The notes beneath the pieces are model-generated. The model ran no database searches. It had not been told where the DNA came from and worked only from the letters and a program-made list of their open reading frames with translations. The position numbers were made by a program, and so were the translations under genes. Below are positions 8,851-9,297 of a stretch of 10,506 nt of DNA, in pieces. This DNA comes from a virus (Monodnaviria; Loebvirae; Hofneiviricota; Faserviricetes; Tubulavirales; Inoviridae), in the IMG/VR virus record IMGVR_UViG_2619619131_000001; one strand, given 5' to 3'. Within the stretch, counting starts at the first letter, position 1, and each line of letters opens with the position of its first letter.

Positions 8851-9163
8851 GACAGAGGACACTCCGCTCGCCGCAGACCCAGCGACCGAACGTAGTGAGC
8901 GAGTGGTCGAGGAAGCGGAAAGGCACCATTACCGGCCCCGGGCACTTACGCTCTGCTGCCTGCTTCGGGCACTTATGCTCTTTGCTGACATGGTCAACCA
9001 GCTTACTGGCTGTGCAGAACCCGACGCGTACAGGCGATGGTGTTGCCTGTTGATGAAACTGATGGCTGACAGCGTGCCCCCCTGTAGTGTGCACCGCAGC
9101 TTAATCCGTGCTTTGTTTCCATGGACTGCACCTGCCTGCCGGACTGACAGGTCTGATGGATGA
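8840..9163 (+). CDS. Hypothetical Cys-rich small protein (possible cargo gene downstream of pI); coding status uncertain
   Basis: 107-aa ORF whose ATG overlaps the end of pI. It spans repeat copy 1. Three of the four differences between the repeat copies fall on third codon positions in this frame and the fourth is V to I. No convincing SD. Confidence 0.25.
8873..8929 (+). repeat. 57-bp direct repeat, copy 1 (pI-pIV intergenic insert)
   Basis: CCGCTCGCCGCAGACCCAGCGACCGAACGTAGTGAGCGAGTGGTCGAGGAAGCGGAA; 53/57 identical to the copy at 9203-9259. Confidence 0.9.
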
Positions 9164-9202
9164 ACAGACAGGCAGAATGCTTCATCTTCGCGTGTGGTGG
9201 TA

Positions 9203-9259
9203 CCGCTCGCCGCAGATCCGGCGACCGAACGCAGTGAGCGAGTGATCGAGGAAGCGGAA
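9203..9259 (+). repeat. 57-bp direct repeat, copy 2 (pI-pIV intergenic insert)
   Basis: CCGCTCGCCGCAGATCCGGCGACCGAACGCAGTGAGCGAGTGATCGAGGAAGCGGAA; lies 330 bp (a multiple of 3) downstream of copy 1. Confidence 0.9.
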
Positions 9260-9297
9260 TATCTTCATGACTGAAAAACAGCACTTAACGGTATAAC

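Follow-up and report, generated by a model that had tools for sequence, protein, structure and literature searches.

The stretch analysed here (the window; 10,506 nt, IMG/VR record IMGVR_UViG_2619619131_000001) is a segment of the Escherichia coli chromosome that carries a prophage of the family Inoviridae, and this work concerns the interval between two of its genes, pI and pIV. The pI gene (7639-8850, + strand) encodes an assembly ATPase of the Zot family, as judged by a Pfam Zot match, and the pIV gene (9298-10506, + strand) encodes a secretin (Pfam Secretin match). The intervening segment, 8851-9297, includes two direct copies of a 57-nt sequence on the + strand. Copy 1 (8864-8920) has the stop codon of pI 13 nt to its 5' side, and copy 2 (9203-9259) has the start of pIV 38 nt to its 3' side. 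The copies are identical at 53 of 57 positions, copy 2 differing at 9217 (T), 9220 (G), 9232 (C) and 9245 (A), and their start-to-start distance is 339 bp (113 codons). This match is far beyond chance among the sequences compared (blastn E ~6e-20). A preliminary description of the window had already recorded a 57-nt direct repeat of 53/57 identity, which is real, and had placed copy 2 correctly; copy 1, which it put at 8873-8929, lies nine bases further left, and its spacing of 330 bp is 339 bp by measurement. As judged by sequence homology, the repeat belongs to the ColE1/pMB1 ssiA (n'-pas) family of single-stranded DNA hairpins, and the interval probably represents a duplicated, plasmid-type, PriA-dependent complementary-strand origin built on this hairpin.

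More than 5000 plasmids were matched by a blastn search with 8851-9297 through the 57-mer alone, and a match to the full interval was found in just two, both of which bear copies of the prophage. Comparison with plasmid origin regions and inovirus genomes had been proposed in the preliminary description; plasmid origin regions were matched, and the deposited inoviruses were not, given that the whole window had no nucleotide match by megablast to deposited phages, inoviruses included. The closest pI protein among deposited phages is less than 35% identical. The resemblance to pBR322/pUC vectors that had previously been noted was borne out with a pMB1 vector record (L009), which includes a homologous 56-mer at 1945-2000 on the + strand. 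RNAI is located on the minus strand of this record (1272-1376) and rep_origin is annotated at 1800-1886; hence, RNAII and leading-strand synthesis run on the + strand, and the strand bearing the 56-mer is the displaced strand, i.e. the lagging-strand template. On the displaced strand, the pMB1 hairpin occupies the stretch 123-178 nt beyond the RNA/DNA switch, which agrees with review statements that n'-pas/ssiA, a PriA-dependent primosome assembly site, is exposed on the displaced strand by Pol I extension just past the origin (PMC3167613 and PMC3640518). The association with ssi or primosome sites made in the preliminary description was thus well placed, as the repeat is homologous to the origin-adjacent pMB1/ColE1 segment where the literature puts ssiA/n'-pas. 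A covariance model of the family (R1, 34 members) scored the pMB1 vector site at 90.7 bits and the window copies at 82.4 bits (8852-8926) and 82.6 bits (9191-9265). The corresponding stretch of the pBR322 GenBank record is presumably that annotated as the 'L-strand Y effector site', complement(2351..2414). The + strand of the window, which is the coding strand of all of the phage structural genes, aligns with the pMB1 displaced strand.

Copy 1 is identical at 57 of 57 positions to a site in an Escherichia albertii RepL plasmid (L006). The best plasmid matches are to small RepL plasmids (Col(MG828)-type; L006 and L007) and MobQ/Rep plasmids (L008), and not to ColE1 replicons; in these RepL and MobQ plasmids, the hairpin precedes rep by ~200-470 nt and has the orientation of that gene. 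The occurrence of the hairpin family in these different replicon types suggests that it is a general lagging-strand origin. A number of short records labelled as phage (Z35638.1, OX638291.1, OR845275.1 and others) also match the hairpin, through plasmid or vector sequence; Z35638.1, for example, includes bla, RNAI and the pMB1 origin.

To define the structure, species-representative genomes were scanned for the arm pattern CCGCTCGCCGCAG, followed after 22-42 nt by GAGGAAGCGGAA, and 108 loci with 40 distinct cores were recovered. None of these 108 hairpin loci is adjoined by inovirus genes. The arms pair imperfectly (CCGCT..CC.C.G with C.G.GG.AGCGG) to form an invariant base stem, and the interior forms a variable apical hairpin. 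The apical stem of copy 1 is GACC(CA)GC/GTGGTC, and an inner 2-bp stem closes a G-T-A triloop (ACGTAGT). Interiors of unrelated sequence still form perfect stems, as in AACGCTTTCTC/GAGAAAGCGTT, GGATTAACC/GGTTAATCC and GGATGCGA/TCGTATCC (L079, L093 and L115). RNAalifold analysis of 34 distinct aligned members returned 13 pairs, with 100% of cells paired and 31 compensatory cells. This 13-pair model was reached by 0 of 500 shuffles, and slid partners were only 24-41% paired. As the search required the base stem, the structural evidence comes from the inner pairs, the informative ones being, in the column numbers of alignment A2, 31:55, 32:54, 37:50 and 40:47. A G-N-A triloop (GCGNAGC or ACGNAGT) is enclosed by the two innermost of the pairs, 40:47 and 41:46.

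Within the subclass that includes the window copies, pair 14:44 (57-mer index, used from here on) is A:T in 12 members, C:G in three, T·G in one and A·G in one; pair 15:43 is C:G in 14, T·G in two and T:A in one; and pair 19:41 is G·T in 12 and G:C in five. Across the whole family, wobbles read in the + sense are always G·T (11 cells) and never A·C, and thus the + strand is the folding strand. Exchange of an entire stem was also observed within the phage lineage, as relatives L138 and L140 have the apical stem swapped to GTTTAT/ATAAAC, a complete compensatory replacement.

Modelled in this way, the hairpin structure explains all four differences between the window copies. The changes at 8878/9217 (C to T) and 8906/9245 (G to A) fall on both sides of pair 15:43, converting C:G to T:A, and other array copies hold the T·G intermediate. 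The change at 8881/9220 (A to G) is either in a 2-nt bulge or converts A:T to a G·T wobble, and that at 8893/9232 (T to C) affects the variable position, N, of the G-N-A triloop. The minimum-energy fold of copy 2 pairs index 13-16 with 42-45.

The preliminary description had taken the same four differences as a hint of purifying selection on a peptide. Its codon arithmetic was correct, since in the frame of the 107-aa open reading frame (ORF) at 8840-9163 (+ strand), 8878/9217, 8881/9220 and 8893/9232 are third positions and 8906/9245 changes V to I. However, the probability that three of four differences share one codon phase by chance is ~1/9 for a fixed frame and ~1/3 for any phase, so that the pattern is not significant; a coding explanation is therefore not needed. 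A small protein, carried as cargo after zot, as ctxAB is in CTX-phi, and encoded either by this ORF (the peptide ending [V/I]EEAE) or by the ORFs that PGAP annotates as 'hypothetical proteins' on the minus strand of the units of relatives, would fit the intact state of the 107-aa ORF in the window and its three synonymous differences. Against this, copy 2 lies outside the ORF, the stop codon of which is at 9161-9163, and the TGG codon at 9038-9040 is replaced by TGA in four of seven other unit copies in an initial set, and in 19 of 22 when all copies are counted. Members of the hairpin family are 51 to 66 nt long between their fixed ends, hence their indels are not multiples of three, and indels of 1 nt and 4 nt occur in the sequence between the hairpins. 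Variable sites in the conserved part of that sequence are spread 15/14/14 over the codon positions, for the + strand ORF and the PGAP minus-strand ORF alike, and several copies of the latter have in-frame stops or frameshifts. Pfam and PHROG searches with five candidate ORFs identified no family, the lone PHROG hit having E = 0.1. The ORF at 8840-9163 is consequently judged not to be a gene, neither the proposed selection on a peptide nor the proposed cargo gene is upheld, and a protein-coding role for the segment is scarcely credible.

A further conserved feature was found 3' of the hairpin. The CACTTACGC core of a downstream box (GCACTTACGC, 8942-8951, + strand) starts 22 nt 3' of the end of copy 1, and a degenerate box (GCACTTAACG, 9281-9290, + strand) follows copy 2, likewise after 22 nt; where the window has this degenerate form, the box of single-hairpin relatives is an intact GCACTTACGCACGG. 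A second copy of the box (GCACTTATGC, 8969-8978, + strand) was made by a 27-bp tandem duplication (8932-8954 / 8959-8981). The two boxes are the internal near-repeat GGGCACTTACGCTC / GGGCACTTATGCTC reported previously, which is present as GCACTTAYGC at 8942-8951 and 8969-8978. The near-repeat GGGCACTTA(C/T)GCTC lies within the duplication, and one unit in L003 lacks exactly those 27 bp. As judged from 94 distinct family members, 58 of which have a CACTTACGC box 21-24 nt (mostly 22) 3' of the hairpin, the association is well above the ~7% obtained with shuffled or left-flank controls. Natural pMB1-like plasmids have CTCCTTACGC at the +22 position, and the pUC-type vector is without a +22 box. 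Possible roles for the box are that priming takes place there or that it extends the recognition site. Its reverse complement, GCGTAAGTGC, resembles the MOBQ nick core (GGTAAGTGCGCCCT in the RSF1010 oriT); an oriT was dropped as a candidate because the box is also present in non-mobilizable plasmids and the ColE1-type CTCCTTACGC loses the likeness.

The hairpin and a 282-bp spacer together form one repeat unit (8864-9202), and such units occur in tandem arrays of varying copy number in related prophages. What had been described as an insert of ~450 bp is not foreign sequence, as single-hairpin relatives have a 120-bp pI-pIV region and the window has one extra 339-bp unit, i.e. one unit of a copy-number-variable array that is head-to-tail with a constant period. 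Tandem Repeats Finder (TRF) reported a period of 339 with 2.9 copies in L001 and a period of 312 in L003, corresponding to the unit with the 27-bp deletion. Relatives have 0, 1, 2, ~2.9 or ~4 units and one to five hairpins, with five in L127. Complete E. coli genomes contain 22 prophages that span the greater part of 7600-10506. Of these, 20 are without the ~339 bp, and the sequenced example of these (L002) has one hairpin in a 120-bp pI-pIV spacer; the other two have a further unit and hence three hairpins, an arrangement also seen in a Citrobacter plasmid. Two hairpins, as in the window, are present in the IMG/VR contigs of this phage, and a single one in a complete circular genome of 8135 bp. 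A second inovirus lineage, in which traX follows zot, has ~2 to 4 units and a partial first unit. Its pI protein is only 50% identical to that of the window while its units are ~90% identical in nucleotides, indicating that the module has moved between phage lineages. The hairpin is directly 3' of pI on the coding strand in every relative whose contig runs past pI, and no further match to model R1 was found elsewhere in these phage genomes.

Four IMG/VR contigs (L131, L134, L136 and L137) end exactly at the stop codon of pI; the evident cause is that short-read assembly is interrupted by the hairpin, a sequence also found in plasmids, or by the tandem array. The traX gene, annotated as an F-type pilin acetylase, lies between zot and the array in L001 (1820-2581) and also in L004 and L126-L129, and is unusual cargo for a filamentous phage, which may use conjugative pili as receptor.

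Conservation is uneven along the spacer. A noncoding core at 8966-9108 has a mean pairwise difference of 0.01-0.05 among 18 units, compared with 0.09-0.2 in the flanking linkers, and the 3' part (9109-9202) is variable, with indels of 1 nt and 4 nt among copies. The spacer alone matches only two plasmids and nine of 5426 E. coli genomes, all of them records with prophages, and the number of places in a single genome reaches 30. When 100,044 species-representative genomes were searched for an exact 20-mer of the core, none matched, and RNAalifold analysis of 11 distinct spacers predicted 81 pairs with no compensatory change. The spacer may be no more than a passenger of the hairpin duplication, or it may act as a second element in cis.

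Two other explanations of the array were considered. The 339-bp unit might be a small non-autonomous mobile element that targets the hairpin and duplicates it on both sides of the insertion, given that direct hairpin copies bound the unit, that single-hairpin 'empty sites' exist and that so many unit places occur in some genomes. However, inspection of ten prophage loci and of both plasmid records placed the spacer inside the inovirus pI-pIV interval each time, and the high counts fit approximately ten prophages with approximately three units each (the remaining places were not inspected individually). Head-to-tail units and partial first units are typical of tandem duplication, no terminal inverted repeats are reported for the spacer, and a target duplication of 57 bp is implausible; transposition of the unit is accordingly considered very unlikely. 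Alternatively, the hairpin and array might be inert, a plasmid-derived scar or hitchhiker amplified by unequal crossing over. The 57/57 identity to the RepL plasmid site, the ~90% unit identity across lineages with 50% pI identity, i.e. horizontal exchange, and the absence of the extra unit from most prophages of the window type are all consistent with this. Yet all relatives examined, from both lineages, retain one copy or more with position and orientation unchanged, compensatory change has occurred within the phage lineage (GTTTAT/ATAAAC; C:G to T·G to T:A), and the +22 box is also kept. Inert DNA is therefore an unlikely explanation, if less so than transposition.

A duplicated complementary-strand origin, which had been one of the suggestions of the preliminary description, is the best reading of the homology, strand sense and compensated structure. 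As a general rule in Inoviridae, the coding strand is the packaged (+) strand. On this rule the hairpin would be present in the incoming single-stranded DNA in its active sense. After infection, the virion strand would be coated by SSB except at the hairpin, which would be recognised by PriA; together with PriB, DnaT and DnaC, PriA would load DnaB, and priming by DnaG would then allow Pol III to complete the complementary (minus) strand. PriA-type priming of this kind is described for phiX174 and for the ColE1 lagging strand (PMC5778457). The initiator would be bipartite, consisting of the hairpin and, after 22 nt, the CACTTACGC box. The array would grow and shrink by recombination between hairpin copies, leaving two putative initiation sites in the window.

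Comparison with the ColE1/pMB1 ssiA site reveals direct homology, as the invariant arms CCGCTCGCCGCAG ... GAGGAAGCGGAA are common to both, together with the same hairpin architecture, including the G-N-A triloop mini-hairpin, and the same sense relative to the single-stranded strand. The phage site differs in that it lies between genes I and IV and not 120-180 nt 3' of the RNAII origin, in that the 5' arm of the apical stem is 6 nt long in the window, like that of RepL and MobQ plasmids, whereas the pMB1 stem is of a 5-nt type with tandem G·A mismatches, and in that it forms a tandem array with a 282-bp spacer. The primosome site in the F-G intergenic region of phiX174, a member of the Microviridae, is similar in kind, as PMC5778457 describes for it a PriA-dependent complementary-strand start on SSB-coated virion DNA, which is the role proposed here. 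The F-G region also has GAAGCGG and a GCGAAGC G-N-A mini-hairpin, like the hairpin family, but it does not match overall, either in sequence or under the covariance model, which gave just a partial 5-bit hit on the mini-hairpin.

For Ff phages (M13/f1/fd), the minus-strand origin serves the same step of the life cycle, conversion of single-stranded DNA to the replicative form (RF). It consists of two hairpins with -35/-10-like elements, situated 3' of gene IV in the large intergenic region, and is recognised by sigma-70 RNA polymerase, which makes the primer. The candidate in the window differs in lying between genes I and IV, in belonging to a PriA-type family and in having no promoter-like hexamers in 8700-9450. 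ColE1 rri/ssi sites placed in the virion strand are reported to substitute for the M13 minus-strand origin in deletion phages (Nomura and Ray 1980, as cited in PMC3640518), and the window looks like a natural counterpart of this laboratory construct, with the differences that it represents a natural prophage lineage in which the site is fixed in position, duplicated and subject to compensatory evolution, and that its origin function is putative. Single-strand origins (sso) of rolling-circle plasmids and of integrative and conjugative elements are likewise strand-specific, orientation-dependent hairpins that start lagging-strand synthesis on the strand that is displaced and are modular and exchanged between replicons (PMC4595007); they differ in that the sso types of Gram-positive plasmids are mostly RNA-polymerase-dependent and are unrelated in sequence. 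No description of a natural inovirus with a ColE1-type initiation site was found in the literature searched, the coverage of which was incomplete.

Several observations weigh against a PriA-dependent origin. The hairpin is also transcribed within the pI-pIV operon, leaving room for a role at the RNA level. Identification of the pMB1 segment with the mapped factor-Y L-strand site is presumptive, relying on position, review statements and the annotation attributed to pBR322. The invariance of the base stem is partly imposed by the search pattern. Conservation by itself says little about function in the phage, given that the 57/57 identity to a plasmid site points to a recent exchange. Folding as single-stranded DNA, which had been proposed in the preliminary description and was performed for each copy and for the whole interval on both strands, gave unremarkable z-scores on either strand (-0.2 to -0.4 on the + strand), and minimum energies for 39 family members failed to separate the + from the minus strand; hence, thermodynamics alone is uninformative. 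Finally, this reading does not account for the 282-bp spacer.

The first of these points was considered further. If the hairpin acted in the pI-pIV RNA, by directing its processing or stability, by attenuation or by controlling translation of the secretin gene (38 nt further 3'), its orientation in the sense of the genes and its position directly 5' of pIV in every relative examined would be accounted for, the G·T wobbles of the + strand would equally be G·U in mRNA, and the placement of the hairpin 5' of rep, in the rep orientation, in RepL and MobQ plasmids would be parallel. On the other hand, the family occupies the very spot in ColE1/pMB1 where the literature puts a priming site on single-stranded DNA. 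A 2-bp stem with a G-N-A triloop is also a DNA-type mini-hairpin, and the upstream array copies lie more than 300 nt from pIV and are still intact and compensated. There is no terminator-like T run 3' of the hairpin on the + strand, and a scan of 8700-9450 detected no promoter and just a chance-level terminator-like site on the minus strand. A function in the RNA is accordingly thought improbable, to about the same degree as inert DNA, and a complementary-strand origin, which would be used by PriA on the + strand, is the preferred interpretation.

A bolder version of this interpretation is also offered, as a tentative and rather doubtful extension. The lineage, one of enterobacterial filamentous phages, might have replaced, or never had, an Ff-type origin primed by RNA polymerase, and might use a portable PriA cassette (the hairpin, the CACTTACGC box at +22 and the spacer with its core of 140 nt) that is exchanged between small plasmids and phages and amplified to tandem arrays of 1-5 hairpins. 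The core would then act in cis as a second element, for example by enhancing priming or by determining packaging or competition, and array length would tune the speed of conversion from single-stranded DNA to RF.

For filamentous phages other than the Ff group, few complementary-strand origins are known to have been mapped. The hairpin provides a precise candidate origin for a lineage of inovirus prophages of E. coli, Citrobacter and Proteus, and a PriA-dependent origin predicts dependence on the host restart proteins PriA, PriB and DnaT and not on RNA polymerase. It also appears that a 57-nt priming hairpin travels as a module between small plasmids and single-stranded DNA phages. The seemingly 'synonymous' pattern in the short repeat proved to be a signature of compensation in a hairpin, and coding scans that rest on few differences should be treated with caution. 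At a practical level, the hairpin or array breaks short-read assemblies of such prophages, and some gene callers place spurious 'hypothetical proteins' there.

The remainder of the window is laid out as follows. The host genes hipB and hipA occupy 1-1589 and are followed by the inovirus prophage, which includes a gene for a Phage_GPA-type Rep (2479-4581) and genes for a pIII-like coat protein and pVI ahead of the Zot-family pI. An Rfam scan of the whole window found nothing relevant, the lone match being a chance miRNA on an attP-like hairpin. Beyond these host genes, GGTGCGCATAATGT, which corresponds to the left half of E. coli dif, is found at 1666-1679 with an inverted partner near 1745-1758, and a perfect 14-bp hairpin lies at 1696-1734. 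This dif-like/hairpin block of window 1-1760 recurs in an intergenic region of a circular IMG/VR genome (L016).

An IS110-family transposase gene is present directly 5' of the phage Rep gene in some relatives (L002, 3192-4157; L004, 11299-12252), and the relatives that carry it are integrated at many chromosomal sites, near ybiJ, yraR, srlB, gatY and yjiM. The IS110 gene, the many integration sites and the spacer copies at up to 30 places per genome, representing roughly ten prophages, together suggest that an inovirus spreads inside one genome via an IS110-type recombinase. An IS110 bridge-RNA or attachment element within the 339-bp unit was considered and rejected, as the presence of the IS110-family gene is uncorrelated with that of the unit (L002 versus the window and L003).

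Just 3' of pIV in L001, a short tandem repeat (5304-5408; periods 12, 24 and 39; CTGCTGCTTCTG-type) lies in a minus-strand hypothetical ORF. The pIII gene shows a length difference of ~195 bp mid-gene (about 3740-4230) between L014 and L015, contigs that are otherwise identical, and this represents a linker-length polymorphism.

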